A stretch of 64,000 bases of DNA from Azolla caroliniana (taxonomy: Eukaryota > Plantae > Polypodiophyta): assembly GCA_043228905.1 (NCBI GenBank), contig JBHGNT010000013.1, forward strand, positions 4,464,001 through 4,528,000, written 5' to 3'. Each line of letters starts with the position of its first letter. Within the stretch, counting starts at the first letter, position 1. Both the position numbers and the translations under genes were made by a program. Shown here piece after piece: positions 1 through 63,914 of this stretch. The notes below the pieces were generated by a model. That model ran no database searches and was not told the DNA's origin. It was given only the letters and a program-made list of their open reading frames with translations.

Positions 1-596
1 TGTACATTTGTCCAATACGGTATTTAAGGTATTTATAAAAAAACAAGTATAATACGTATTTATAAAGAAAATGTAAGTAAAACCCTAACAAAAAGCAAAA
101 GAAAAAAAAGCTTTTAGTGAAAAAGAAGCCAAAGGAAGGAAGAAAGACGAATAGAAGAGACAACGATGAAGAAGATGAAGAAGAAGAAGAAGAAGAAAAC
201 GAAGAAAAGAGAAACCTATGATGAGTGTGATAATCGCACACGATTCCTCAATCAATGAAGGCATAATTGTAAATAATTACAATTTGAAGTAGAACATTGT
301 GATACACACTTACACTGATTTATAGAATAAGGGAATGTCGACATCCATATTACTACAAGTATTTTAGGATGTTTTTTACAATATTATAGATATTTTTTAG
401 AAAGGTAAATAATTTTTCAAATTCTAGAAGTATTTAACGTACTATACGTAAAATACGTAAAATACGTATTTTATAAGTATTTAATGTATTAAGAAAACGT
501 ATTTAACATATTTTTTAATTGGGAGGTACTATACGGGTATTAATACGTTAAATACGTATGGTATCCGTACCGTGCCTAACATACCTAACAACCTTG
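1..596 (-). mobile_element. Non-autonomous hAT-type DNA transposon (MITE-like), cut by the window edge
   Basis: Reverse complement of ~53214-53957. Ends in AACAACCTTG (TIR CAAGGTTGTT), has many subterminal AATACGT motifs, and abuts Copia gag sequence. Confidence 0.8.
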
Positions 597-2242
597 CCTT
601 GGATGATGCAATGCAGGCCATCCTGCTGATGTGCACACTACCGGACAGCTGGGAGAACCTGGTGGTTACTCTCAGCACCTCCTGTCAAGAAGAGAACTTG
701 TCTTTACAGACGGTGAAGACAAGCATCCTAAATGAGGAGGCAAGGAGGAAAGACAAAGGAGTCCTATCCCAATTAGAGACAAATCTAACTCAACATATGG
801 ACAGAGGAAGAGACCGGCGAAGATGAATTCCGCAACGAACGGACAAATCGCATGCCAGATCGAAGTCCAGAGGTAAGCTTGTGTGCTTTTATTGTGGAAA
901 GCCTGGACACTTCTAGAAGGACTGTCGACACTTAAAGAAAGATAAGAGTGTCGGAAATAATGTCGAACCGAGGAAGATTCCTGATGAGAAGAACACTTCG
1001 GCCATTGCTACGAGCAATGAAGAATTCCTGTTCATTTGTGAACAGAAGAGTGCAAATCTTGCAAGTGAAGATTGCACGTGGGTGATTAATTCTAGGGCAT
1101 CGTTCCACATAACTCCGTCGAGAGAGTATTTCTCGACTTACATAGCCGGGGATCATGGCTATGTAAAGATGGGTGACAGTGGAGAGTGCAGGGTAACCAG
1201 AGTTGGAAGTGTTTGCTTAACAACGTCGATTGACACTGAAGGATGTTTGACACGTCCTCGATATCAGATTGAATCTGATATCGACTGGAAGGTTAGGTGA
1301 CGAAGGCTATAGTGGTAGCTTTTGAAATGGCAAGTGGAAGTTCTGTCGAGGAAATCTTATAGTGGCCCGAGAACAGAAAGAAGGCACATTGTACATGATG
1401 CATGCCCGAATGGGGAAATCGGAAGTAAATGTGGCAGCTGACTCGGCAGGTGAGATATGGCATAAGAGGCTACACCACATGAGTGAGAAGGGAATGTACC
1501 TGTTAGCCGACCAGAAACTTCTACCAGACGTCAAGGGCGTGCATCTGGAGAAGTGCGTCAACCATAGTCGGAAGACATGGGCCTTCGTACTGAAGTCGAA
1601 GGATCAAGTATTGTTGGTTTTCAAGGAGTTCTAGGCAAGAATCGAAAGAGAGTCGGGTCGGAAGTTGAAGGTTTTCCGAACCGACAATGGTGGCGAGTAC
1701 AAAGGGCAGTTCGAGGAATACTGCAAGTGCCAAGGTATTCGGATCGAATACACAGTGCCAAATACCCCAGAGTTGAACGGGCTTGTAGAGAGGATGAATT
1801 GAACAATCATGGAGATGGTAAGGAGCATGGTCTCTCATGCGAAACTGCTGAAATCCTATTGGGCTGAGGCGATGTACATAGTTGTTTATCTAATCAATAG
1901 GTCTCCCTCAGTACCATTAAAGAATGATGTCCCACAGAGGGTGTGGACAGGGAAGGATGTCTCCTACTGGCATCTGAGGGTGTTCGGATGTCTGGCGTAC
2001 ATGCATGTACCAAAAGATCAGAGGTCAAAGCTCGACAACAAGTCGAAAGCATGCATATTCAAGGGATACTCTGAAGATGAGTTCGGCTATAGGCTATGGG
2101 ACCTAGTCGACAAGAAGGTAGTGAGAAGTCGGGATGTAGTCTTTCTAGAAGATAAGACGATTGAAGAATGGAAATCACAGAAGTCAGAATCAACTCCCTA
2201 GTCAACCTCGACTACCATCGACTTAAGGCCAAGTGAGTTGTC

Positions 2243-2743: not shown

Positions 2744-4190
2744 CTAACCGGACTGGTTTGTCGTTACGCCCATCTGATGCCGAAGGGACCGAAAGCGGTC
2801 TGCCGAAAGACACTTGGTCATTCCATCTGCGACATTGTCGGTTGTGGATATTTTCTCTAGACCGATTTTCCCTGAAATGACGCAGTCCCGAACGAAGTGA
2901 TATCGAACGTCGATATGTTTGGAGGCGTTGTGGTGAACCGGATTTTTCGACAAGGCAACAGCACCTTGACTGTCACTATATACAACTGGAGCCGAGTCAT
3001 GGTCGACTTGCCGAAACGTGTGCGCCAGCCGGCCGAGCCACAAAACTTCTTTTGCAGCGTCGGACGCAGCTACATATTCTGCTTCGGTCGTTGAGGTCGT
3101 TGTGCACTCCTGAAGTTTCGACTTCCACGAAATTGCTCCATTGCCGAATTTGAAGCAGTATCCGGTTGTTGATTTCCGACTGTTTATACAGCCGGCGAAG
3201 TCCGAGTCGGTGTAACCGACTACGCCTGAGGTTGAGTTCGGACCGAAAAGAATGCCGTGATCTTTTGTGCCAGCCAGATATTTGAACACATGCTTGACTG
3301 CGTTCCAATGCGATCAGCCAGGATTGTGCATAAATCTGCTAACGACTCCTACGGCATGAGAAATATCAGGCCGTGTCGCGACCATCAGGTACATAAGGGA
3401 GCCGACTGCCGGTGCATACGGTACCGACTTCATATCTTCCCCCTCCGAACCGGATGTCGGGCAGTCTCGCTGAGAGAGCCGAAGATTCATGGGGAGCGGG
3501 GTTGAAGCAGATTTGGCTGATTGCATGTTGAAGCGTTCCAAGACACGTCCGATATAGTCGGTCTGAGACAAAAAAAGATGTCGTTTATCGAGATGCCGAC
3601 TAATCTTCATGCCGAGTATGTGTCGTGCCGGACCGAGGTCCTTCATGGCAAACTTCAACCGCAATTGCCGAATGAGATCGGCAAGTTCGCCCGCGTGGCG
3701 TCCAGAAATTAGCATGTCGTCCACGTAAATGATGAGGAAGATGGGTGATCCATCTTGAGCTATGTGGGTAAAAAGACAATGGTCCTCATCGCTTTTTGAG
3801 AAGCCGATCGATTGGATGAAGTCGTCGAACTTCTTGTAACATTGTCGCGGTGCCTGTTTGAGGCCGTATAGACTCTTCCTGAGTTGGCAGACTAGATGTT
3901 CTTGGCCAGTTGCCACGAAGCCTTTTGGCTGCTCCATATAAATTTCCTCTTCAAGATCACCATGGAGGAAGGCTGTTTTGACATCTACTTGAATCAGCTC
4001 CAAGTTGTCGGCTGCCACTACGCCGAGTAGAAAACGAAGGGTTGTCATTTTCACCACTGGTGAAAAAATCTCGTCGAAGTCGACGCCATATTCTTGTCGG
4101 AAGCCCTTCGCAACTAATCTGGCCTTGTACTTTGGTGTGGTCGAATCAGACGTCTCTTTTAGTCGATAAACCCACTTGCCCGAATGGAGT
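2744..4190 (-). pseudogene. Copia B reverse transcriptase + RNase H (disrupted)
   Basis: ORFs 3314-4057 (IIYVDDMLI) and 2744-3289 (GYTDSDFAG..TTEAEY) separated by one in-frame TGA at 3314. A deletion/frameshift near 4180 disconnects them from the upstream ORF. Confidence 0.92.
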
Positions 4191-6723
4191 GCATTTCCGA
4201 CTCCATCGCCAGATGCCAGGTGGCTGAATCGACAGATGTCGATGCTTCTTCGTAAGACGTTGGTTCGCCGGCGTCGGTGAAGAAAATTCCAGGAGAATAC
4301 CTCTCCGGAGGTTGCGACAGTCTCTCGGATCGTCGAGGTATGATTGGACTGGTCGTATCGGGTATCGAGGTCGGATGGTCCGAAAGCGGATTATTCTGCT
4401 GTGCCGAGTCAGAGTTGTCCGAGTCGGTAGTGGAAGGTTCAGCTACCCGTGAAGCTGACCGTGTGTTAAGAGCGGGGCCTTCTTGAAGGGTCGGCACATC
4501 GGAAAATGTTACCCTTCGGACTTCGATCGGTGTTTTGACTGATGGATTCATAGCCGACTCGTTGAACACAACGTCCGAACTTCGAACGATTTGTCTGCGT
4601 TCGGGGTCCCAGAGTCGGTATCCCATTTCGCCGTCTGATCCATATCCAAGGAAGATGCATTTCCTGGACCGAGGTGCAAGTTTTCGGCGATCATCTTTCG
4701 GAATAAGGGCGTACGCCTCGCATCCGAAGATCCTCAGCTTGTCGTAATTCGGCTTACTGCCGATCCATAGTTCCTGAGGAATTTGAAGTCCTAGAGGTCT
4801 GCTTGGCGACATATTGATTATGTGTACTGCCGTGAGTAGAGCCTCTGCCCAGAAGCCATCCGACAGTCCGGAGTGTTGGAGCATGGAAACTATCCGTTCT
4901 TGGATTGTCCGATTCATGCGTTCTGCAATCCCGTTTTGCTCCGGACTGTGTGGTGCCGTAAATTCACGTCGGATGCCGCGTTGTCGGCAGAATTTGACGA
5001 ATTCTTCTGATTTGAACTCTCCCCCATTGTCGGTCCGAAAGCATTTCAGTTTTCGGTCGGTTTGATTTTCTACCATAGCGAGCCAATCGGAGAAGATCGA
5101 GAAGACACGATCTTTGGTGCGAATTGGATAAGCCCACACCTTTCGAGTCGAATCGTCAATAAAACTGACGAAGTAAGAGGCACCGCCGAGAGACTGATGC
5201 GGCATTGGGCCACAGACGTCCGAGTGGACTAAATCGAGAGGTCTCGTTTCTCTTGGTGCTGATGTCGGGTGTGATGCGGCTGCTTGTTTGCCATACTGGC
5301 AATGTTCGCAGAATTGATGATCCGAGAAGGAGAGTTTAGGGATGTATCCGGCTCTAGATAGGTGCGTAATGCCGGCCTTGCTGAGGTGTCCTAATCTTCT
5401 GTGCCATAGTGATGACACAGGAATATCCACCAAAAACAGGTTACCCTCTCTGAGCGTAACATGTAACGGATACAGTGAGTGTATCTTGGGTCCTCTAGCA
5501 AGCAGGAGGTTCCCCCTGTGGAGTGTCCACCCTCCCGAAGAAAAACCGGCACGAATGCCGTCTTCATCTAGTTGTCCGACTGAGATCAATGGCCTTGAGA
5601 GCTCGGGTACATGTCGGACATTGTGAAGTACAAGTGTAGAGCCACCTGCAAGGTTGAGCTCTACTGTGCCGATTCCAATGATGTCACAGTGTTGCGAGTT
5701 GCCGACTCGAACTGAGTCGGAGTGACGGATCGTATATTGCCGAAATTGGGATCGATGAGGAGTCACGTGAAATGACGCGCCCGAATCTAAGAGCCATGTG
5801 CTCGATTCTTCAGTCGTGAGCAGAACTTCTGATCCGACTAGATTTTCGATCGATAGTATATTCGGGTCGTTTGGTAGCACATCAGCTGAGAAGCTGACGT
5901 AGTTGATCTCCTCATGCCGGCCACTCTTCTTGTCTGATTTCTGAGACTTGTTGTTCTTGTTCTTGAGTGCGCGGCAGTCGGCTTTGATGTGTCCGGGTTT
6001 CTTGCAATAGTTGCAGATTCGATTATCCCGTGACTGGCTCCGTCTTCGCTGATTGTTCGGCTGCCGTGAGGAATCTCTTCCTCGTATGTTCGATCGGTCT
6101 GTCGAACCTTGTACTACATAAGCGTCGTCTGTTGAGTCTTTGGCGAAAGACTTTCTCCGAGCTGCTTCGGTCAGGATTGCGCTCGTGACTTCGGAGTATT
6201 TAACAGCCGTGGTTGACGCATTGCACACGGTTGTGACGAAAGTTTCCCATGATGAGGGAAGGCTGCTCATGAGTATCATTGCTCTGAGTTCATCCTCGAT
6301 TGCCGTCCCCTGAGATGAGATTTGGGAACTTATGCTTTCGTACTCATTGAGATGTGCTTGAACCGAATCTGATTCTTTCATCCGCAAGTTGTAGAGGCGC
6401 CGGATCAGAAACATCTTCGTTGCGGCGACCTTCTTTTCGTAGGTGTCCGACAGTGTTTTCCACAGTTCGAATGCTGTCGTACACGATTGCACCGTAAAGT
6501 ATACCGATTCCGATAGGTGCATCCGAATCGTGGCGCGGACGATTCTGTCCAGCTTCTGCCACTCAATTGGTTTGTATCCTTCTGGAGGTTCTTCATTTTC
6601 GATGGGATCGATTTGCCCCTTGACTATGAGATAGTCCTGCATTTGCTCCTTCCAGAAGTTGAAGTTCGATCCATCGAACTTTCGTAGACTCATTTCTGAC
6701 GAGCCGGATGTTGATGCCATCAA
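4159..6723 (-). CDS. Copia B gag-protease-integrase polyprotein (854 aa, ends at a frameshift)
   Basis: CCHC knuckle CNYCKKPGHIKADC, protease WLLDSGASFH, HHCC zinc finger, rve core (VHSDVCGP..RTDNGGEF..QNGIAERMNRT). Confidence 0.93.
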   Translation of the reverse strand: MMASTSGSSEMSLRKFDGSNFNFWKEQMQDYLIVKGQIDPIENEEPPEGYKPIEWQKLDRIVRATIRMHLSESVYFTVQSCTTAFELWKTLSDTYEKKVAATKMFLIRRLYNLRMKESDSVQAHLNEYESISSQISSQGTAIEDELRAMILMSSLPSSWETFVTTVCNASTTAVKYSEVTSAILTEAARRKSFAKDSTDDAYVVQGSTDRSNIRGRDSSRQPNNQRRRSQSRDNRICNYCKKPGHIKADCRALKNKNNKSQKSDKKSGRHEEINYVSFSADVLPNDPNILSIENLVGSEVLLTTEESSTWLLDSGASFHVTPHRSQFRQYTIRHSDSVRVGNSQHCDIIGIGTVELNLAGGSTLVLHNVRHVPELSRPLISVGQLDEDGIRAGFSSGGWTLHRGNLLLARGPKIHSLYPLHVTLREGNLFLVDIPVSSLWHRRLGHLSKAGITHLSRAGYIPKLSFSDHQFCEHCQYGKQAAASHPTSAPRETRPLDLVHSDVCGPMPHQSLGGASYFVSFIDDSTRKVWAYPIRTKDRVFSIFSDWLAMVENQTDRKLKCFRTDNGGEFKSEEFVKFCRQRGIRREFTAPHSPEQNGIAERMNRTIQERIVSMLQHSGLSDGFWAEALLTAVHIINMSPSRPLGLQIPQELWIGSKPNYDKLRIFGCEAYALIPKDDRRKLAPRSRKCIFLGYGSDGEMGYRLWDPERRQIVRSSDVVFNESAMNPSVKTPIEVRRVTFSDVPTLQEGPALNTRSASRVAEPSTTDSDNSDSAQQNNPLSDHPTSIPDTTSPIIPRRSERLSQPPERYSPGIFFTDAGEPTSYEEASTSVDSATWHLAMESEMHSIRASGFID

Positions 6724-17866: not shown

Positions 17867-20234
17867 TGTACAATGTGTGTGCACACAAAGGCAATTAAAT
17901 GTGCACATGCAAAAGAAAAGGGAAAAGAAAGGGTGGAAAGGAGATATAGAAGCTCGTGTAAAAAGTAAGAGAGAGGAGAGATAAAAAGTAGAGACAAGAC
18001 ATGCTATGAATTTGTAGATATAGAATTATATAGTATATAAGAGAGAGTTAATGGACTAGTGGATAATAAAATTGACTTCTAGCTAGATGTGCACGGTTCA
18101 AATGTGGTCTTACAATGCAGCGTGATTTAACGAATTTTATTTCTTTTGCATTGAAGACAAAATTGGTGACCCCCTTCCTTTTTTCCTATAAAAGGAGGTC
18201 GAGGGGGGCTCATTTGAAGGACGTTTTGGGAGGAGGAGACTATCGCCATTTCTCCTTTGGAGCTCTTCATCTTCTTTTTCACCATTTCTCTTCATCTCAT
18301 ACCCCTTCATCCCCTAATTGCCACGTGCTCGTCTTCTTCGTGTTGGCACTCGAAGTGCTCGTTTATGGTGCTTGTGAGCCCCAGCTTTATTGGTTCGACG
18401 TTGCTTCGTTTCCATTTCTCGTTGCGAGCCTGTGTGCTTGTTGTTCGAGTGGTCGTGGTTTGTAGGCGTCGGCATTTTTGTGGTGCTCATGTGTTCGTCT
18501 TCGTCGTGTTTGTGCTCCGTGTTCAGATTTGCTTTTGTCTCTAAGGGCATTTAGTATTTATGTATTGTTGAGCCTGTGGTTAACTAGAACTTCCTACATT
18601 GTAATCAAACCCTATTTAATAAAGGGCCCTCTTGCGTTGGAATTGAACACATATTTATTTCTTTAGACAATATCATTCATGTTCTTTCTTTCTTTCTTTC
18701 TTTGTTCTCGTCCCCCTGTATGTTCGGCAATCTTGTGATGAGGGAGCGTTTTGAGCATGCCCATGCACCTCTCCTCCTCGTAAACGCGTACGAGCATGTG
18801 TGTGCGTTTGTGTCTTCCTTGTACGTTCGACTGTCTTGGGACGAGGGAACGTTTTGGGCGTGGCCATGTACCCTTCCTCATAAAGGCGTACGAGCATTTG
18901 TGCATGTGCTTGTGTCTTCCTTGTACGTTTGATTGTTTTGTGATGAGGGAGGGTTTCAGGCGTGCCCATGCACTTGTCCTCCTCATAAAGGCGTACAAAC
19001 ATTTTGTGTGTGTGTTTGGGTTATTCTTGTCTGTTCGGCCATCTTGTGATGAGGTAGCGTTTCGGGCGTGCCCATGCACCTCTCCTCCTCATAAAGGCGT
19101 ACGAGCATTTGTGCATGTGTTTGTGTCTTCCTTGTACATTCGGTCGTCTTGTGACAAGGGAGCGTTTCGGGCGTGCACATGCACCTCTCGTCCTCATAAA
19201 GGTGTACGAGCATTTTGTGCATGTGTTTGTGTCTTCCTTGTACGTTAGGTCTTCTTGTGACGAGGGAGCGTTTTAGGTGTGCCCATGCACCAATCCTGCT
19301 CATAAAGATGTACGAGCATTTGTGCGTGTGTTTGTGTCTTCCCTGTACGTTTGGTCGTCTAGTGACGAGGGAGCGTTTCGGGCGTGCCCATGCACCTGTC
19401 CTCCTCATAAAGGAGTACGAGCCTTTTCTGTGTGTGTTTGTGTTATTCTTGTCTGTTCGGCCGTCTTGTGATGAGGGGGCGTTTCAGGCGTGCCCATGCA
19501 CCTCTCCTGCTCATAAAGGCATACGAGCATTTGTGCATGTGTTTGTGTCTTCCTTGTACGTTCAGTCATCTTGTGACGAGGGAGCGTTTCGGGCGTGCAC
19601 ATGCACCTCTCGTCCTCAGAAAGGTGTACGAGCATGTTGTGCATGTGTTTGTGTCTTCCTTGTACGTTCGGTCGTCTTGTGATGAGGGAGCGTTTCAGGT
19701 GTGCCCATGCACCACTCTTGCTCATAAAGATGTATGAGCATTTGTGCGTGTGTTTGTGTCTTCCTTGTACGTTTGGTCGTCTTGTGACGAGGGAGCATTC
19801 GGGCTTTTGCCCATGCACCTCTCCTCCTCATAAAGGCGTACGAGCATTTGTGCTTGTGTTTTGTGTTTTCCTTGTATGTTCGACGTCTTGTGACAAGGGA
19901 GCATTCAGGCGTGCCCATGCACCTCTCCGCCTCATAAAGATGCATGGGCATTCGTGTTTGTGTTATCATCCCATTGTGCGTTCATCTTGTGTGCTCACCT
20001 TTGCTTGTACCTGTTTGATCACTTGGCTGGTGCAGTGATCTCAAAAACTCGACGACTCGTGATCAGCAAAAGACACTGGCCCCACAAAAGGGGCAAGGAG
20101 CCCTTGATCAGGAAGGGTCGGGATGTGGTATTGTCGTAAAGCAAACCTCGGGTCTTGTCTATCCCTTCGTACTCTCTAGTCCAAGACCCTCGTGGTCCCA
20201 CCCAAGTAACACACACGTGGGAATCTTCGCGACA
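17867..20234 (+). repeat. 5' LTR of Gypsy B (~2.37 kb)
   Basis: TG..CGCGACA ends; TATA box CTATAAAAGG ~18186; repeated in part at 27771-28712. The left end is inferred from the TSD. Confidence 0.8.
18710..19960. repeat. Tandem array of ~12 units of ~105 bp inside the Gypsy B LTR
   Basis: GTGTCTTCC anchors at 18810, 18912, 19123, 19229, 19334, 19545, 19651, 19756. Confidence 0.95.
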
Positions 20235-24148: not shown

Positions 24149-25024
24149 TGTCGTGGTGTGGCGTGTGCACTGTGAGCAAAAGCAAGGTTCCACACACATG
24201 TCATGAAATAATACATAGGCTAATAATAATAATAATAAGTAACTTGTAGTAGCTTATTGGTTAAGGTGTATAAGTATATGTAGAGAGGTGTAGAGCTCAA
24301 GTTTCCCTTTCTACAAATGATTTTGCTTCCCTTCCATTTTTGTGATAAAGAAAGAAAGAAAGAAAAGCATGTAATGTTAAAATAAGCTCCTCTTTCCTCT
24401 ATAAGAGAGGAGCCATATGGCTTATTTGAGGGTCACCCATTTTGGCTTAGGGGTGTACCACTAGGGTTTCATCTTCTTCTCCTCTTCTTCTAGGGTTAGG
24501 GTTTTGTAGCCTCCCTTTTTCTTTCATCTTTTCCTTCTAGGGTTAGGTTTTGAGAGCTTCTTCTTTCTCCTCAACATACTAGAGGACTTAGGTTTTTAGG
24601 GTCTATGAGTTTAGATTCTATTCTACTTCTTATTGAAGAGATTTAGGGCTTGGATTCCTTCCACAATGGCTTCTTCGGCATCTCGGTGGTAGTCAACTCG
24701 GTGGCCGGTGGCATAAGGGAGGTTGTAGTGGCACGAGAACTACTCCGAATCGAGGCAACATAGCTGTCGGAAGTAGTCGAGCTCGGAGCCCACTAGACTC
24801 TCCTTCACCGGTTTATTTTAGCCCCTTTTGTTTATTTATAACCAATTATTGTAATAACCACCGAAATTGTGGTGTCAAGCCTAACAATTGTAAAAAAATA
24901 AAAACAAAACCCCTAATTTATAACAAAACTTATGTTTCATATTTCCCCATGTCTTTGTCTTAATCTCCCGCTTCCTCTCTACTTTTGTCTCCCCGGTCCA
25001 AGGCCCCGGCGGTTCCGTTCAACA
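24149..25024 (+). mobile_element. Solo LTR 1 (876 bp) in Gypsy B RNase H
   Basis: TGTCGTG..TTCAACA; 4-bp TSD ACGC; removal restores the R-Y-A-I reading frame. Confidence 0.85.
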
Positions 25025-27770: not shown

Positions 27771-28712
27771 TTCCTTTTTTCCTATAAAAGGAGGTCGAGG
27801 GGGGTTCATTTGGAGGACGGTTTGGGAGGAGGAGACTATTGCCATTTCTCCTTTGGAGCTCTTCATCTTCTTCTTCACCATTTCTCGTCATCTCATACCC
27901 CTTCATCCCCTCATCACCATGTGCTCGTCCTCTTCGTGTTGGCACTCGAAGTGCTTGTTTACGGTGCTCGTGAGCTCGAGCTTTGCTGGTTTGACGTTGC
28001 TTCGCTTCCATTTGTCATTAAGAGCCCTTGTGCTCGCCGTTCGGGTGGTCGTGGTTCGTAGGGATCGGCATTTTTGTGGTGCTCTTGTGTTCATCTTCGT
28101 CGTGTTCGTGCTCCATGTTCGGATTTTCTTTTGTCTCTAAGGGCATTTAGTATTTATGTTTTGTTGAGCTTGTCGTTAACTAGAAGTTGCCACATTGTAA
28201 TCAAACCCTATTTTATAAAGGGCCCTCTTGCGTTGGAATGGAACACATATTTATTTCTTTAGCCAATATCATTCGTGTTTTTTCTTTCTTTCTTTCTTTG
28301 TTCTTGTCCCCTTGTACGTCCGTCCATCTTGTGATGAGGGAGCGTTTCGGGCATGCCCATGCACATCTCCTCCTCATAAAACCGTACGAGCATTTGTGCG
28401 TGTGTTTGTGTCTTCCTTGTACGTTCAGCCGTCTTGTGATGAGGGAGCATTTTGGGCGTGCCCATGCACCTCTTGTCCTCAAAAAGGCGTACGAGAATTT
28501 GTGTGTGTGCTTGTTTCTTCCTTGTACGTTCAGTCGTCTTGTGACGAGGGAGCGTTTCAAGCATGCCCATGCACCTCTCGTCCTCATAAAGGCGTACGAG
28601 CATTTTGTGTGTGTGTTTGTGTCTTCCTTGTACGTTCGGCCGTCTTGTGATGAGGGAGCATTTCGGGTGTGCCCATGCACCTCTCCTCCTCATAAAGGTG
28701 TACGAGCATTTT
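27771..28712 (+). repeat. Doubly truncated 3' LTR of Gypsy B with ~4 satellite units
   Basis: Collinear with ~18175-19110. Confidence 0.88.
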
Positions 28713-29757
28713 GTGCATCCAGTTTTGGAAGCCATATCTCGTCTGACTGCGCCTGCCGACCCAGTGAGATATGTTTTGTCGTATCCGGTTCGTGCAGAAC
28801 CGGTGCCACCAGTTCTTGTCATATAGAGACAGTTTTCGACGTTCTGCCCTCTACCGCCAAGCGGGGAATCAGGCTCCTTTCCAGATCTGGGCCCGATCCG
28901 TCCCCTTGCTACTCCTTGTCGTGCCTTCTGCCAACGTTCGAGGGTTTCAACGAGTTCCTCCACCGCGTCTTCCTCGGCGGTTTCGTGATTGATTCGTTGG
29001 GCCAAAGTGTCCATCTCCCTATCATGCCGGCTCAGTTTGATCTTGATGGGCTTGGCTAGTTTTTCCACCAAGTTTTCTACCGGCACAACTTTCTCCACCG
29101 GCTCTTTCTGGCCTGACTGCTCCGTTTCCTGTTGAGACGAGCCACCTTCTGTCCAACCGGGGGTGTGCTTGGCGAGGAGCTGCTACCGTTTCGTCGTTTT
29201 ATTCGGCGTTGTTTTTGTCGATCGGCCTCGTTTCCTTGCTTGAATGGCTAGTGGCAGTGATACCAATAGGAATAGCCATTGTGCCACTGCAGTCGAGGCC
29301 TTCTTCCCATCCTCAATCAAGTGAATGGTAGCCCGCAAGGAATCTGTCACTATAACCAGCCAGTCGACCTTCAGGCCTTCATACGTCGCAATGATAAAAC
29401 TGACTTTGTTTTTAGGCATAGTTGGTGGGCGATGATGCACAAATCCGTATTCGATTAACACCCATGCCACCTCCCAAAATAGAGGGCCATCGTTGCCTTG
29501 TGTGCGGTATGCTTTGCTAGCTATGGAGTACTCACTAAAGTACTCTATCAGTGTCTCAATGGAGGGGTTCTCGATGGAGCAGAGGTCTCCTTCCGGTAGG
29601 CCGGTAAGGGCCTGCACCATGGCTTATGTGATCTCCTCGAGGTCAATCTGTAATGCGACCTTCTCGGTTCTTCATGCGATGGTGCCTCTGCTATACGGAG
29701 GAATCCCTCCAATTCGTATCTGCTGAGCCAATCTTTCGCCATATCGGATAGAGCCAT
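28713..29757 (-). pseudogene. N-terminal part of the Gypsy C 3' extra (env-position) ORF
   Basis: MALSDMAKDWLSRYELEGFL.. and MVQALTGLPEG..KVDWLVIV..RKRGR peptides downstream of integrase on the same strand; frameshifted. Confidence 0.65.
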
Positions 29758-55706: not shown

Positions 55707-56147
55707 CGTCTTGACGTCCAGTTTCTCTACCTCGAGGTCCATGCTTGCCGCTATGCCCAATACTGTCCGGATGGATGCCATCTTTACTACCGGGGCAAAG
55801 ATCTCATCGAAATCCACTCCTTTCTTCGACTGGAACCCCTTTCACCATGATCTGGGCTTTTGTATCTCGGTGGGTTTCCGGCATCTCCCGGTTTCAGCTT
55901 GTACACCCACTTGTTCCGGAGTGCGCTCGTCTTGACGTCCAGTTTCTCTACCTCGAGGTCCATGCTTGCCGCTATGCCCAATACTGTCCGGATGGATGCC
56001 ATCTTTACTACCGGGGCAAAGATCTCATCGAAATCCACTCCTTTCTTCTACTGGAACCCCTTCACCATGATCTGGGCTTTGTATCTCGGTGGGTTTCCGC
56101 CATCTCCCAGTTTCAGCTTGTACACCCACTTGTTCCGGAGTGCGCTC
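55707..56147. repeat. Tandem duplication 2 x ~220 bp within Copia E RT
   Basis: CGTCTTGACGTCCAG starts at 55707 and 55928. Confidence 0.93.
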
Positions 56148-56290
56148 TTTCCTTTCGGCAACTCCGTAAGTTCATATGTGTGGTTCTCATGCAGGGAATC
56201 CATTTGATCCTGCATGGCACTCAACCATTTGTGGTTGTGGGTGTCTGTCTTTGCTTCTTTGAAGCTTTCCGGCACCCCCTCATCGCTGTC

Positions 56291-56363
56291 ATGATATGGC
56301 AAGACTCGAACCCATGACCTTATACTACATGGGTCGAGCTCTTGACCATTAGACTATACATTG
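56291..56363 (-). other. tRNA-like / Pol III type-2 promoter module, antisense in the LTR U3 (second copy ~61537-61609)
   Basis: Minus strand A box TAGTCTAATGG (56356-56346), variable-loop AGGTC and B box GGGTTCGAGTC (56313-56303) at canonical tRNA spacing. Cloverleaf stems are degenerate, so this is not a functional tRNA. Confidence 0.6.
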
Positions 56364-56417
56364 TAATACATAGAATATTATTTTCATTTACGTTTTATTA
56401 TAGAAAATTGATGTATA

Positions 56418-56460
56418 TTCCAGATTTCTCTGGAACATTCTAGAAACTTCAGGAGTATTC
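56418..56460 (+). promoter_or_regulatory. Heat-shock element array upstream of the LTR TATA box (also 61664-61706)
   Basis: TTC-GAT-CTC-GAA-TTC-GAA-TTC-GAG-TTC in exact 5-bp phase; TATAAAA at 56471. Confidence 0.72.
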
Positions 56461-56734
56461 CTTAGAACACTATAAAAGGAGGCATAAGGCATTATTTCGA
56501 ACCAAATCGGTTCAACGCCAGTCTTAAGCCTCCTAGCTACTGTACACTTTCTTCACATAATATATATATTTTCTTATCATCACTCACTCACTCTCTCTCT
56601 CTCTCTCTCTCTCGATCTCTCTCTCCCTCCCTCTCACTCACTCTTTCCTTCTCTCGAGAGTTCTTTACCTCTCTTAGTACTAATACTTCTTTTAGTACTA
56701 ATTCCTTCTCTGTCTTAGTACTGTTCCTGACAGT

Positions 56735-56747
56735 TTGAACCGATTTG
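56735..56747 (+). promoter_or_regulatory. Self-priming PBS (non-tRNA) of Gypsy D
   Basis: TTGAACCGATTTG is the exact complement of CAAATCGGTTCAA at 56503-56515, 32 nt after the TATA box. Confidence 0.8.
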
Positions 56748-56805
56748 CCTACCTTCTGTCTCTCTCATTTCCTACTAATCTCTTATTCCTCTTTTCTTTC
56801 ATCCC

Positions 56806-57957
56806 ATGGACACTGTTAGCGCTGAAGAATATCAATCTGTTTTCTCGGAATTTCAATGCTTGAAAGAGAAGTTCCATGCTTTGGAACAAGAAAACCAACG
56901 GTTGTTGGGGGATCTTCAGCAAATCTCCTTAGAAAAGCAACAAACGCAACAACAACATGGGGAACTTGCGTTACGCGTGCAACAACTCGAAGCAACCATC
57001 GTAGCGATGCAACAACAAGGGCCCGGAACACAAGGGATTCGTAAAGAACCCAAGATTGTCTTTCCCACGAAGTTCGATGGAACGCGATCACAGTTTAGAG
57101 GGTTCCTTAACCAGGTACGATTAGTTATTCAAATGCATCCTTCCCGGTATCCCACCGATGCATCACGAGTGGGTTTAGTAGGCACTTTGTTAAGTGGCCC
57201 AGCGTTGGCATGGTTCGCTCCACTATTAGAAAAGGAATCCCCGTTACTCAACAATTTTGAAGAGTTTCTAGGTGAGTTTAAAGCATGTTTCGAAGATACT
57301 GACAACATTAGGACCGCAATCAACAAAATTCGGCGATTACGCCAAGGTGACCATCCAACCTCTGCATATGCTGCAGATTTTCGCCTACTCGCCGCCGATA
57401 TCCCTTGGGATGATCAAGCGTTGATGGAGCAATTCCGTTATGGTTTACGCAACGACGTCAAGGATTTACTCTTGACCTTCCCCGAAGAGCCAAAGTCCTT
57501 AACAGAAGCAATCAGTCGCGCGGTGAGATGTGACAACCGCCTCTTTGAGCGACGTTCGGAACGACAACTACAGATGCCGAGGGCAAGATCAGAGCCCACC
57601 TACGCCTCAGTGGTAGCAAGACCTTTTCCGAGGGAGTCATATAATGCGCCTCCAGCGAATACTCCGACTCCGATGGAGATTGACACTACACGTCGTCGAG
57701 GGCCATTATCCGAAGAAGAAAAGCAGCGACGCCGTACAAATCAACTATGTCTTTACTGCGGTGGACCAGGACATATTGCAATAAATTGCCCCCATAGGTC
57801 AAGAAGACAGGTAAACCAAATAGTCGCTAGTTCTAATTGTACTAAACCCGAGCCTATTTCAGTAGGGATATCTGATAGTCCTAATAGTACTAATAGCCCA
57901 GATCTAGCAAACAGATTTGATGTCCTTAGTCAGTTAGAAGAAGAGTTAAACGACTAA
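56806..57957 (+). CDS. Gypsy D Gag (383 aa, open)
   Basis: N-terminal coiled coil, P.KFDG.R..FRGFL capsid (PEG10/Rtl1-like), CLYCGGPGHIAINC knuckle. Confidence 0.92.
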   Translation: MDTVSAEEYQSVFSEFQCLKEKFHALEQENQRLLGDLQQISLEKQQTQQQHGELALRVQQLEATIVAMQQQGPGTQGIRKEPKIVFPTKFDGTRSQFRGFLNQVRLVIQMHPSRYPTDASRVGLVGTLLSGPALAWFAPLLEKESPLLNNFEEFLGEFKACFEDTDNIRTAINKIRRLRQGDHPTSAYAADFRLLAADIPWDDQALMEQFRYGLRNDVKDLLLTFPEEPKSLTEAISRAVRCDNRLFERRSERQLQMPRARSEPTYASVVARPFPRESYNAPPANTPTPMEIDTTRRRGPLSEEEKQRRRTNQLCLYCGGPGHIAINCPHRSRRQVNQIVASSNCTKPEPISVGISDSPNSTNSPDLANRFDVLSQLEEELND

Positions 57958-60900
57958 GTCCAGCCAAAATAGGAGCCGTTTGGTTGGACAGCCCTAGATC
58001 TGTGCAACCCATTAGTGGTTCCATTCCCTCTAAGCAAGTTAGTGATATGTTCGTAGCCCAAGTAATAGTTAGTACTAAAAGTACCCCTCCAGTACATGTC
58101 CTAGCACTCCTAGATTCTGGAGCTAACTCTTGCTTTATGGATAAGAAATTTGCTCAAGCTCATAAGATATCCCTAAGAAAACTCCAGTGTCCAGCCTCTG
58201 TAGTAGTCATTGATAGACGTCCCATTGCTTCCGGAAATATCATAGAAGAGTCTGAGCCCATTAATATTGTCCTAGATAACTTAGCATGTGTAGTATCATT
58301 TAATATTATTAGTATCCCAGAACATCCCATAGTTTTAGGATTACCATGGTTCGAGTTACATAACCCAGACATAGATTGGAGAACAAGAGAAATCCGGTGT
58401 CGACAAACCCAAGGGTCAACTCAGAAGATGGCAACCATTTCGCTACGTTAGTTGCGTAAAGAAGGGCACAAGGAGGAAATGTTCCTCTTTGCAATATCAG
58501 TAAACCCCTCCAGCACCACTAAAGAAGGATCCACCGTTCAACTTCTCGAGAAGTATCGTCATTACGCCGATGTCTTCGATAAAGTACAAGCCAACACACT
58601 TCCTCATCATCGACCGTACGATTGCCCCATCGATTTACAACCGGGAAAAGAGCCGCCATGGGGACCGATCTACAATTTGTCACCAACCGAGCTGGAAGTC
58701 CTTCGGGCCTATATAGAGGAGAATTTGGAAAATGGTTTCATCTGGCATTCGAAATCTCTAGCCGGCGCGCCCATTTTCTTCGTCAAGAAAAAGGATGGAT
58801 CGCTTCGTCTTGTTGTAGATTACCGTGGCCTAAATAAGGTTACAATTAGGAATAGGTATGCTCTTCCCCTTATCTCAAGTCTTTTAGAACGGATCAATGG
58901 TGCCAGGTTCTTCACGAAGATCGACTTACGGGGAGCATATAACCTCGTACGGATCCGACCAGGAGACGAATGGAAGACCGCGTTTCGCACCAGATATGGG
59001 CACTTCGAGTATACGGTCATGCAGTTCGGCCTCACTAATGCACCAACAGTCTTCCAGCACATGGCTAATGATATATTCCGAGATCTATTGGATGATTGTT
59101 TGATCATCTATTTGGATGATCTACTAGTTTATTCAAAGACCCAAGAAGAACATGATTCTCATGTACTATTAGTACTAAAACGACTTCGAGAACATGGTCT
59201 GTATGCAAAGCTGGAAAAATGTAGTTTCGGGTGCAACCAAGTGGAATTTCTCGGCTACATCATTTCGTCAGAAGGCATCTCCATGGACCCAGCTAAGGTC
59301 AAAACGGTGGTAGAATGGCAGACTCCACGTTCGGTGCGGGATGTGCAATGCTTCCTAGGCTTTGTTAATTTTTACCGGAAGTTCATACAAGATTACTCAA
59401 AGATCGTTCTACCTCTCACACAACTTACCAGGAAGGGACAACCGTTCATTTGGTCTGAAGAAACGGACGTGTCTTTCAAGAGTCTTAAAAAGGCATTTAC
59501 ATCGGCTCCAATTCTAGCTCATGTCGATCCGGAAAAACCATTTATTATCGAAGCTGACGCATCGAATTTTGCATTGGGGAGCATTCTTTCACAACAAGGG
59601 AATGATGAGAAGCTACATCCTGTGGCTTTTCACTCACGCAAGTTTGATGCCGCCGAAATCAACTGCAAAATTCATGATAAGGAGCTATTGGCAATAGTGG
59701 ATTCTTTTATGCAATGGAGGCATTTTCTGGAGGGATCCTCTCATCCGGTCACCGTATTTAGTGACCACAAGAACCTTGCCTACTTTCAGGATGCTCGTGT
59801 GTTGAATCAACGTCAAGCTCGGTGGGCCCACTTCCTCACGCGTTTCGACTTCAAAATTACATATCGTCCGGGGAAGCACCAAGGGAAGGCAGATGCATTA
59901 TCACGGCGTTCGTATCTAGCACCCCGTCCCGGCGAGCCAGCTTTCAATAACCAAAAACAAGTCATCTTGGGACCGGCACGACTACAAGCAACAAAGATCT
60001 TTGACATGCCCATGGATTCCCGCGTTATCGATACCATACGCGAAGATTTGAAGGCAGATGCGTTCGCCCAAGTTATACTAGCACAAATTGATCCCTCTCG
60101 AGCGTCGTGTTCACAGTCGCAACCACCAAGTACGGACTATCGGCAATTCAAATACCATGATGGATTACTCTTCTTTAAAGAACTTTGTATGTTCCTAATG
60201 GTTCTTGCCACCTTCAAGTAGTACAAAACTGTCATGACACATATACAACTGGGCATTTTGGTAGTACTAAAACACTACATTTAGTACAACGATCATTCTG
60301 GTGGCCCTGTATGCGACAATTTGTCGAGGATTTTGTTCGGACTTGTGATACATGCTGCAGAGCGAAAATGCCAAGGCATCATCCATATGGTTTATTAGAA
60401 CCATTACCAATTCCAAGCAAGCCGTGGCAATCCATTGCTCTAGACTTCATCACAGATCTTCCAGTCTCTAAGGGGTTCAATGCGATTCTAACGGTGGTCG
60501 ATCGATATACGAAGATGGCTCATTTCTTGCCATGTACTAAGGAGATCTCTAGTGAAGACACTGCCGAAATTGTCATGCGTGAAGTATGTCGGCATCATGG
60601 ACTTCCCGATAGTATCATCAGCGACTGTGGACCCCAGTTCGTGTGAAAATTCTGGAAGCACCTTTTTAACATGCTCAAGGTCACTTGTAACCTCTCCTCC
60701 GGCTACCACCCACAAACCGACGGCCAAGCCAAACGAACCAATCAAACGCTGGAGCAGTATCTGCGGTGCTTTCTCAGCTATCATCAGGATGACTGGGCAG
60801 ATATTCTCCACTTCGCCGAATTTGCCTATAACAACTCTATCCATGCATCCACGAAAGTTACGCCATTTTATGCTTATACGGGATGTCACCCCCGGTGGTG

Positions 60901-61540
60901 TGTACTTGAAACCCCAGAGGTGTCCACAAATCCTTGCGCAGAGGATCGTTTGGAGAGGTTACGCAAGATACAAGCGGATTTATCTACTCATCTCCAACAA
61001 GCTCAACAAACACACAAGATTTATGCGGATCGTCATCGACTCCCATCTAGTTTTAACATTGGAGATCGGGTATAGCTACTCCGACGACACATCAAGACTA
61101 CTCGCCCATGCGAGAAGTTGGATTATCGGCGATTAGGTCCTTTCCGTATTATCGGAAAGATTAATGATGTCGCTTTTCGTCTTGATCTACCTCCACAACT
61201 TCAGATACATTTGGTGTTTCATAGTTCTCTCCTCGAACCCTATCAAGAAAGCACCATCCCAGGACGTATTACACAGCCTCCACCCCCGATCGAGGTTGAA
61301 GATGGACCTGAGTACGAGGTTGCCGCCATCCTTGATTCCAAGCTTGTTCGCAACAAGCTCTACTATCTAGTCGACTGGCTAGGATATAGTCCCAACGAGC
61401 GTACTTGGGAACCGATAGAGAATGTCACCAATGCTCGTGCTCTTCTTGAAGACTTCCATCGTCAATATCTAGACAAACCGGGTCCTCAATCCAAAACGAC
61501 TCGTTACACTCGTGATTTTAAAAGGGGGATAGTGTCATGA
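57945..61540 (+). pseudogene. Gypsy D Pol in the -1 frame: protease, RT, RNase H, integrase, chromodomain (3 stops, 1 frameshift)
   Basis: LLDSGA, IIYLDDLL, EADAS, HHCC, IALDFI, GPF, EYEVAAILDSK..YYLVDWLGY..TWEP. Stops end at 58451, 60646, 61075; frameshift ~60183. Confidence 0.93.
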
Positions 61541-61824
61541 TATAGCAAGACTTGAACCCATGACCTTATACTACATGGGTCGAGCTCTTGACCATTAGAC
61601 TATACATTGTAATACATAGATATTATTTTCATTTACGTTTTATTATAGAAAATTGATGTATATTCCAGATTTCTCTGGAACATTCTAGAAACTTCAGGAG
61701 TATTCCTTAGAACACTATAAAAGGAGGCATAAGGCATTATTTCGAACCAAATCGGTTCAACGCCAGTCTTAAGCCTCCTAGCTACTGTACATTTTCTTCA
61801 CATAATATATATCTTTTCTTATCA

Positions 61825-61862
<38 letters not shown>

Positions 61863-61973
61863 CCTCCCTCCCTCCCACTCACTCTTTCCTCCTCTCGAGA
61901 GTTCTTGACCTCTCTTAGTACTAATACTTCTTTTAGTGCTAATTCCTTCTCTGTCTTAGTATTGTTCCTGACA
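61533..61973 (+). repeat. 3' LTR of Gypsy D
   Basis: Direct repeat of the 5' LTR, preceded by PPT AAAAGGGGGATAG. Confidence 0.96.
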
Positions 61974-63914
61974 ATCGCTTAGCAACACGTGCTTTGCATT
62001 TGGAAATCTCTAAGGGGCTCTTCTCTCTTTGAGAGGATATCTCCGTCCTCCATTTGTTCGTCATCCGAATCCAATTCGGGATCTTGTCCAGTTTCGGTGT
62101 CTTCTTCTTCTTCTTCGGCCAATTCGGTTTCTTGTCCGTATCCGGCTGGTTCGTCTAGTGTCATCCGGTTACCGGCTAACATCCGGTTTTTAATCGGGTA
62201 TATCCTTGTGTCCTCAAGCCGGTTTTCATTGGATGATCCAGAGTTCATCAACTTCTTCTCCGACTCCCAATCGGCAATGGTCCTCTCTTCCATGAAGCCT
62301 ATGTCCCGACTCCGGAACACGTTCTTGTCGACCAGATCCCACACCCGGTAACCGAACTCATCATTGCCCTATCCAAGGAATATGCATGGCCCAGACTTCG
62401 GATCCAACTTTGCTCTCTTATCCTTTGCAACATGCACATATGCGAGACACCCGGTCACCTTCAGATGTCAGTAAGACACGTCCTTACCTGTCCATATTCT
62501 TTGCGGTGTGTCTCCGTCCAAGGGTACTGAGGGTGATCTGTTTATCACATAGGTTTCCGTCGTCAACGCCTTATCCCAAAACGTATTGGGTAACTTTGCA
62601 TGTGCTAGCATGCTCTAGACTCTCTCCATTATGGTCCACTTCATCCTTTCGGCCAGCCCATTCAATTCCATTATGGTCCAGATTTCCTTCAATCGGTAGT
62701 ACTCCTCGAACTGCCCCCGGTATTCTCCTCCGTTGTCCGCTCGAACCGCCTTCAGTTTCCGGCCACTTTCTCTTTCCACACTTGCGTGGAGCTCCTTGAA
62801 GACGGATAACACTTGATCCTTCGTCTTCAGTGGTGAGACCAACAACTTCCGGCTGTGGTCATCTATGAACGTCACAAAGTACTGCAATCTGGCATGTGAC
62901 TTCGTGTCCACTTGACACACACCGGTATGCGCCAGCTCTAGTGGTGCCTTCCATCTCATCGATGGTCTTGACCGGAAGGAGGTCCATTTTTCTTGCCAGC
63001 CAAGCAATCAGTGCACTTCTCAAGTTGCACGTCCTTCACTGGAATGAGATTGTCTTCGACAAGTCTCTTCATCCCCTTCTGGCTCATATGACACAATCTC
63101 TTGTGCCACAACTCACCGGTAGTGTCAGATGCTACGTTCACTTCCTCCCGGCATATCCGAGCATTCATCAAGTACACTGTGTTGACCTTCCAGGCTCGAG
63201 CCACTATTAGGCTCCCTTTGCTGAACTTCATAACTCCGTTCCGGATGCTACCCGTGTAGCCTTCATCATCTAGCCAACCGACTTATATCAGGTTCAGTCG
63301 AACCTCCGGAACGTGTCAGACATCCTTCACCAACAACTTGTATCCGGTTGATGTTTTCAACAACACATATCCTATGTTGACAATTCGGCAGGTCCCTTCA
63401 TTCCCCATTCAGACACAACCATGATCTTCGGTTGTGTAGGATGAGAAGCATCTCCAGTCCGGTGGTAGGTGGAATGACGCTCCGGAATCAACAACCCACG
63501 TTGTCTCGTCGTCGACAAGGTTTAACTCATTCTCCTTGGTAATGAGCATTGGTTCTTCTTCACTTGTCGCGATTGCCGAAGTTCCTTTCCGATCCGGGCC
63601 TCTCCGGTCTGAACTCTTCTTCGAATCGATAGTGCCGGTTTCTTTCTCTTTGCAGAAATGCCGACAGTTCTTCTGGAAGTGCCCCGGCTTCCCACAGTAG
63701 AAGCAAGTAGGCCTCCCCCTTGACTTCGACCTCGTTCCCGATTTGTCCCGGTTTTGAGGACTCCGATACTAGCCTCTTCCTCGGTTGTGGTCATCTTCGG
63801 TAACTAAGGCCTTCGGATCGGTTCCAGACTCCCACTCCTTCCAGTGAGCTTCTTCATCTAGCAAGCTTGATTTTACCGTTGCTAGGGACAATTGTTCTCC
63901 TTCTAGCCCGGTGT

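Follow-up and report, generated by a model that had tools for sequence, protein, structure and literature searches.

An antisense tRNA-type A/B-box module at the LTR edges of Tcn1-like chromoviruses, a candidate outward Pol III promoter

The DNA analysed here, a 64,000-nt stretch of an Azolla caroliniana contig (the window), carries a full-length copy of a Tcn1-like chromovirus inserted into a decayed Ty1/copia coding region (Table 1). The copy is defective; its pol region contains stops and a frameshift and is split into five open stretches. Pfam searches gave the order gag, PR, RT, RH, INT, SH3 and C-terminal chromodomain (Chromo, E = 1.5e-14), and the Y-W-Y residues of the aromatic cage were present in the translated chromodomain, with positions taken from PMC3350952. 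At the overlap of gag and protease (57930-57957), gag stops and the protease lies in another frame, so that translation of pol would depend on a frameshift or on recoding of another kind. AT and CT microsatellites in the R/U5 region of the LTRs (56566-56640 and 61810-61880) hold most of the differences between the 5' and 3' copies. Left of the insertion, the copia sequence at 55707-56147 forms an imperfect tandem duplication of ~220 bp.

A preliminary description of this DNA had claimed that the element needs no tRNA primer. The analysis bore this out: the primer-binding site (PBS) has a 13-nt complement within the element itself, and no tRNA-complementary PBS was present. The same self-priming arrangement, with a 12-nt complement, was found in 11 of the 17 related loci examined. 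The domain order, the chromodomain and the self-priming PBS match those of the plant Tcn1 clade, which, in the available text of PMC6317226 and PMC2864245, is known only from mosses and club-mosses, a range that points to a non-seed plant as the likely host. A quick RT tree, containing no named Tcn1 reference, placed the window element inside a 46-row clade (SH-aLRT 99), and the close matches of a protein search (71-85% identity) included no named plant Tcn1 element. No RT relatives were found among viral contigs.

Table 1. Features of the Tcn1-like element in the window, with module positions in related loci in the last row
Feature	Position	Strand	Remarks
Tcn1-like chromovirus (Ty3/gypsy), full-length copy	56287..61973	+	5687 bp; TG...CA ends
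Target site duplication (TSD) ATCGC	56282..56286; second copy 61974-61978	+	5 bp
5' LTR	56287..56732	+	446 bp; 95.7% identity to 3' LTR
3' LTR	61533..61973	+	441 bp
gag ORF	56806..57957	+	
pol (protease, RT, RNase H, integrase, SH3, group I chromodomain)	57930..61540	+	Pfam
PBS, self-priming	56735..56747	+	13 nt complementary to 56503-56515
Presumed 5' end of element RNA	56503..56515	+	Self-primer, complementary to PBS; ~30 nt below TATA box
TATA box TATAAAA, the element's own Pol II promoter	56471..56477	+	Back to back with tRNA-like module; from sequence, relatives alike
Polypurine tract (PPT)	61520..61532	+	
tRNA-like module, antisense	56291..56363	-	tRNA positions 1-73; cloverleaf broken
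A box	56346..56356	-	T8 to G19
AGGTC	56316..56320	-	tRNA positions 44-48
B box	56303..56313	-	tRNA positions 51-61
Second module copy, 3' LTR	61537..61609	-	A box 61602-61592, B box 61559-61549
AT-rich tract upstream of A box	56357..56406	-	84% AT; predicted TFIIIB site and start region
Rod hairpin	56296..56349	either	20 pairs; strong in near family only
Second module, in pol of relatives	L006:2949-3006 (-); L009:5901-5960 and 585-632 (-); L012:3231-3278; L037:4958-5005; L057:517-564		

On the minus strand, both LTRs read as an A box, AGGTC and a B box at tRNA spacing (56356-56303 and 61602-61549), just as had been described. With T8 set at 56356 and one extra base allowed in the D loop, AGGTC falls at tRNA positions 44-48 and the B box at 51-61. 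The B box of the 3' LTR differs from that of the 5' LTR by one change, TTCGA to TTCAA, and still fits the consensus. When the window was scanned with a general A/B-box pattern, the only matches were the two LTR heads, which count as one event, against 0.1 expected per 64 kb from 30 simulated sequences.

The likeness to tRNA was then examined with models from an unrelated source. From 312 tRNAs of viral contigs, those matching the search pattern and those with lengths outside 71-78 nt were dropped, which left 168 unique sequences. A profile of these phage tRNAs, searched over the window and 77 related loci (424 kb), matched the two LTR heads of the window with E values of 0.0054 and 0.049 and locus L002 with 3.6e-5. 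With a covariance model built from 73 of the 168, the two heads were the top 2 of 12 window matches (16.1 and 14.8 bits; E = 0.036 and 0.084, the next match having 0.95). The match of both heads to an independent tRNA profile and covariance model supports the earlier claim that the module is tRNA-derived. Covariance-model similarity, proposed earlier as a check, was thus found, but the scores were weak (E 0.04-0.08), and Rfam cmscan (E<=10, 801 and 96 bases) gave no tRNA match. ARAGORN called 0 tRNAs, and degenerate real tRNA-Pro genes in L004 scored 27-33 bits with the same phage-tRNA covariance model. As for features of tRNA-derived SINEs, only a head-like part at the LTR edge was found, and no free copy was present within the window.

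Next, the module was followed through related elements. One scan of metagenome contigs yielded 153 RT relatives. The 80 best were retained; they represent 77 loci, 58 of them with at least 60% identity. LTR starts could be located in 30 cases, near-duplicates included. G18-G19, GTT and A58 occurred at a spacing of 43-44 nt in 25 of the 30 LTR heads; L005, L006b, L014, L026 and L068 failed this strict A/B test, and the A-to-B spacing itself was 43-44 nt in 26 heads. Six of the 25 passing heads had T at C56; in yeast, TFIIIC no longer binds when this position is mutated (PMC3395662). The module lay 11-40 nt from the LTR end and was antisense in every head that carried it. All module-bearing loci belonged to the single 46-row clade of the quick tree, and the module was absent from the five distant relatives with a located LTR start (46-50% RT identity).

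Column statistics were calculated over 19 aligned rows, from which eight near-duplicates and the degenerate heads L001, L005, L014, L026 and L068 had been omitted; for comparisons between families, ten rows were hand-picked, one per family. Among the ten families, mean pairwise identity was 0.89 at 11 universal tRNA positions, compared with 0.38 at 40 stem positions, 0.37 over 61 positions of upstream DNA and 0.39 at 4-fold degenerate RT sites (36 pairs from nine of the ten families; 0.25-0.39 against the window). Synonymous RT sites are near-saturated among the families. Because a box-anchored alignment is circular for the box letters, six tRNA letters outside the pattern (T16, A21, A44, G45, G46 and T47) were counted instead. 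They occupied 57 of 60 cells; 200 shuffles gave 17 on average and at most 26, and the opposite strand gave 19. Positions 44-47 of AGGTC were kept across families though they lie outside the search pattern, and the 43-44 nt spacing was found in 10 of 10 families, the shuffle maximum being 5.

Whether the boxes are better conserved than flanking U3 had been proposed as a check. Across families they stood far above stems, flanks and synonymous sites, but within the near family they were hardly better kept (81/88) than the rest of U3 (575/656). Taken together, the tRNA-type module is very probably under selection. Four DNA runs each had 3115-5403 contigs over the stretch with an 80% identity filter; among 40 of the 85 variant rows obtained with this filter, 0 were in the B box and 2 in the A box, counts not weighed as evidence of conservation. 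An A located 33 nt upstream of T8 was invariant in 10 of 10 families and was not relied on, since it depends on the LTR copy chosen for the window family; it shifts by a 1-nt indel between LTR copies and is one column of 61.

We also examined whether an RNA fold was conserved. Cloverleaf pairing was found in 51.6% of cells, close to the 48.9% of shuffled rows and far from the 95.2% of real tRNAs, in agreement with the earlier statement that the tRNA stems are broken. RNAalifold gave no consensus structure for the module alignment, and with pairing near the shuffled level a conserved cloverleaf RNA was rejected. The segment had also been said to fold as a rod of ~20 bp; tRNA-derived SINE RNAs are known to refold into rods. 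In the window this fold was confirmed: the rod at 56296-56349 had a z score of -5.35, none of 200 shuffles being as stable, and the plus strand at 56287-56363 had a z score of -6.02. For the whole 91-nt transcript of the 3' LTR, z was -1.60, and 13 of 200 shuffles were as stable. The strong rod was, however, confined to the near family, where z was -3.0 to -6.0 in all four relatives folded. In 15 rows outside the near family the minus-strand module folded no better than shuffles (z -1.9 to +1.1). When the rod register was imposed on nine other families, 62% of it was paired compared with 43±7% for re-dealt columns (7 of 5000) and 48% for the cloverleaf. This register was borrowed from a relative, and the conserved B box forms one of its arms, so shared ancestry alone could explain the raised pairing.

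The DNA upstream of the module, on the minus strand, is AT-rich. The 50 nt next to the A box had an AT content of 76-92% in each of the 19 rows, falling to ~40-60% farther in from the tract in several families. The TFIIIB region of plant tRNA genes is AT-rich in a comparable way (PMC13578239, PMC3082873). No fixed TATA box was found upstream of the module; a CAA in the window occupies tRNA positions 1-3 instead of -10 to -3 and is unconserved. In the 7 of 10 families for which the Pol II start was covered, it lies 146-215 nt from T8, back to back with the module.

An antisense RNA of ~90 nt ending at TTTT (T4) had been predicted. The AAAA at 61520-61523 within the PPT is TTTT on the minus strand and is the first T4 behind the 3'-LTR module, at the end of a 90-nt span from 61609. 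The TTTT behind the 3' LTR of the window is thus where it had been placed, but the position of the putative terminator varies among families. A T4 was found in 8 of 10 families (3.3 expected) within the interval from the B box to 25 nt outside the LTR, a count inflated by the relatedness of the families and by the PPT's own A-run. It was in the PPT in four families; in four more, where the PPT contains just three A, it was inside the LTR; two had none. For the LTR alone the count was 4 of 10, with 1.8 expected (P = 0.08). No T4 was found within 400 nt on the minus strand leading out of the window 5' LTR, nor within 400 nt in L009 and L019, and in L006a and L025 a T4 lies inside the module. Among the assembled contigs of four RNA runs, only two cross the LTR, both from the same run and uninformative on strand and ends, and the other three runs had none there; in RNA runs X15-X20, only 0.05-0.10 of the words were present.

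The tRNA profile revealed a second antisense A/B module in one sub-family (Table 1). It derives from another type of tRNA, lies in frame within the PR-RT linker of pol, and is absent from the window element. This second capture suggests that such boxes were selected for repeatedly or that the elements are prone to copying tRNA sequence. An A-box-like stretch in the PR-RT linker of the window (~58415-58425, minus strand) was rejected as a candidate: a conserved coding motif is located there and no B box was present.

Several other tRNA-like or repeated sequences were observed. A weak sense-strand tRNA-like stretch at 24243-24319 (E = 0.95 and 0.21) has a clear A-box-like part and a degenerate B box; it lies ~45 nt after TGTCATGA and upstream of a TATA near 24400, within an insertion of ~0.9 kb that interrupts a Ty3/gypsy coding region, and is single copy in the window. 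Degenerate tRNA-Pro-like units form a tandem array beside a truncated copy of the element family at L004:2270-3025. At L050:1450-1522 (+), a tRNA-like A/B stretch is found by a decayed relative, with no recognisable LTR start there. At L070:3-226, an LTR of the window's family has inserted, reversed, into another element of the clade. Arrays of 105-106-bp repeats occur in retrotransposon-derived DNA at 18694-19964 and 28267-28777 of the window.

What could such a module do? Because it points outward, it cannot transcribe the element, and in the 5' LTR it separates the host flank from the Pol II promoter. The conservation of boxes and spacing, with free stems and AT-rich DNA upstream, is the pattern expected of selection on DNA recognition by TFIIIC and TFIIIB. 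We propose that the LTR edges carry an outward type 2 Pol III promoter that acts at the DNA level as a barrier protecting the element's own Pol II promoter, a reading to which we assign a probability of about 0.5. Judged from its sequence, the module is likely to be a working type 2 Pol III promoter, and it is probably bound by TFIIIC. That barrier or anti-silencing activity is the benefit for which it was selected falls slightly short of an even chance.

In the proposed scheme, a tRNA gene or the head of a tRNA-derived SINE would have entered the ancestor of the clade in a single capture, in reverse orientation. TFIIIC on the A and B boxes would load TFIIIB on the AT-rich DNA that separates the module from the Pol II TATA box, and Pol III may yield a short RNA of ~65-100 nt where a T4 follows. 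The bound complex would stop silent chromatin from spreading in from the host flank and so keep the Pol II promoter open in heterochromatin. Such a barrier would be of use to an element that, guided by its group I chromodomain, presumably integrates into H3K9-methylated chromatin. In MAGGY, chromodomains of this group target H3K9me chromatin (PMC3350952), and H3K9-methylated targeting has likewise been suggested for RLG1 (PMC7466625). In yeasts, tRNA genes and TFIIIC sites block the spreading of heterochromatin, and at cen1 of fission yeast the barrier works in either orientation (PMC2040200, PMC3395662). No demonstration of barrier activity by plant Pol III elements was found in the literature examined. 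The partial rod register in other families and the conserved letters outside the boxes are not required by a pure barrier model.

The main competitor locates the benefit in the Pol III product, a rod-like cis-antisense RNA of 65-100 nt over U3, and over the PPT in some families, that would regulate reverse transcription or feed or decoy small-RNA silencing. The stable rods of all four near relatives folded, the 62% pairing of the rod register in nine other families against 48% for the cloverleaf, and the T4 found in 8 of 10 families, lying within the LTR where the PPT has only three A, all agree with it. A cis-antisense RNA would also need no conserved sequence, and the Pol III hairpin RNAs of foamy virus LTRs are a precedent (PMC3993851). 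Against this, the fold was no better than shuffles in the 15 rows beyond the near family, and ancestry alone may lift the rod register, given its related source and the B box arm. Moreover, L009, L019 and the 5' LTR of the window have no T4 within 400 nt, and that of L006a and L025 falls inside the module. We consider this reading rather unlikely. It is improbable that the plus-strand genomic RNA instead pairs with the D and T arms of a host tRNA and so aids dimerisation, packaging or strand transfer. The orientation and the place in U3, beside the PPT, would fit, and the conserved letters reach past the strict boxes to 21 and 44-47. Precedents are the bipartite PBS of Ty3 and a tRNA-like stretch in HIV-1 U3-R; for the latter, nothing was found in the literature search. 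The element, however, self-primes (13 nt, and 12 nt in 11 of 17 loci), and the stems, which pairing specific to one tRNA would need, are unconserved (0.38). In mature tRNA, A58, T16 and T47 carry base modifications and pair poorly, yet all three are invariant in the module, and such pairing gives the AT-rich tract no role.

Slightly less credible again is a role as a landing pad, in which the module mimics a tRNA gene so that elements integrating at Pol III start sites, of its own kind or others, insert beside it. Ty3-type targeting of Pol III genes is established. No insertion upstream of the module was found in 6 of 6 related LTR pairs, in which collapsed contigs would hide rare ones, and no tRNA-profile match lay beside four insertion flanks (the window, L001, L018 and L070); the window copy sits in a copia gene. 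Drawing insertions into its own promoter would also leave purifying selection unexplained. That the module is a functionless remnant of an ancient tRNA or SINE insertion is very improbable. Weak covariance-model scores and the damaged boxes of several copies would suit a relic, but the boxes have an identity of 0.89 where stems, upstream U3 and synonymous RT sites have 0.37-0.39, and the 43-44 nt spacing is kept in 26 of 30 heads. This position-specific conservation largely refutes the relic reading.

Returning to the barrier, a wider version of the model is more tentative: a heterochromatin-seeking plant clade may have domesticated a tRNA gene promoter as a portable barrier, so that every copy would arrive with a TFIIIC/Pol III boundary of its own separating its Pol II promoter from the host flank. 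Very many mobile Pol III sites would thereby be scattered over the genome, with one sub-family adding a second capture, of a different tRNA type, in pol. If the module is a barrier, it would explain how elements that integrate into heterochromatin stay transcribed, and it would offer the first plant test of tRNA-type insulators. An abundant repeat family would then supply a large share of the TFIIIC sites of its host.

The preliminary description knew of no such module in plant Tcn1-like elements. Our search agrees with it: no Pol III or tRNA-like LTR element in plant Tcn1 was found in the literature, including the available text of PMC2864245, PMC6317226, PMC3350952, PMC7466625, PMC11899658 and PMC12786077, subscription papers being largely outside this search. 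Kojima (2024) mentioned 'not a few' Repbase LTRs with tRNA-like parts and, in the text available, analysed only TRIMs (PMC10886601). With those LTRs uncharacterised and few subscription papers in the search, an earlier notice may exist. The same paper expected autonomous partners to be without the tRNA-like stretch.

The element resembles several known systems in part. Helenus (TRIMp3), of which one family is known from Selaginella, also has conserved tRNA-derived A/B boxes in its LTRs, a tRNA fold that is mostly lost and a 5-bp TSD (PMC10886601). However, Helenus is non-coding, 311-1263 bp long and tRNA-primed, whereas the window element has 5687 bp, gag and pol, and primes itself. The tRNA-like stretch is sense in Helenus-1_SMo and Helenus-2B/2C_ToGe, where it is proposed to drive transcription, and antisense and outward in the Tcn1-like element, which has a separate TATA promoter. 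Of four features of Helenus/TRIMp3 membership, the window element shares the A/B boxes and lacks the other three (non-coding length below ~1.3 kb, sense promoter and tRNA PBS). In the Cassandra and Ajax TRIMs, too, the LTR houses the Pol III promoter of a small-RNA gene, but that promoter is 5S-derived and of type 1, the elements are non-autonomous, and Cassandra makes its element RNA from it (PMC10886601, PMC12786077). The plant Tcn1 clade shares the Ty3/gypsy order, the group I chromodomain and the self-priming PBS (PMC2864245, PMC6317226, PMC3350952), as well as LTRs of ~440 bp, a 5-bp TSD and great abundance, RLG1 of Physcomitrium included (PMC7466625). Simian foamy viruses are autonomous retroelements with A/B-box Pol III units and hairpins in the LTR; they make a conserved, processed miRNA, whereas the Tcn1-like module has no evident conserved product and keeps exact tRNA spacing (PMC3993851). 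In its proposed action, with TFIIIC/Pol III occupancy as a boundary of silent chromatin, the module resembles the tDNA barriers and extra-TFIIIC (ETC) sites of yeast, which are fixed host loci, unlike the mobile LTR module (PMC2040200, PMC3395662). ETC sites have an extended B box, whereas the LTR module keeps the A box, the B box and the AT-rich upstream tract (PMC3395662).

Earlier descriptions of LTR Pol III promoters concern non-autonomous TRIMs, which make their own RNA from them, and retroviral miRNA cassettes. What appears to be new, as read from the sequences, is the theme of a small-RNA promoter in an LTR turned antisense and outward in protein-coding, self-priming elements. Here the putative promoter has been kept to near-saturation of synonymous sites in an element that needs neither an outward promoter nor a tRNA primer.
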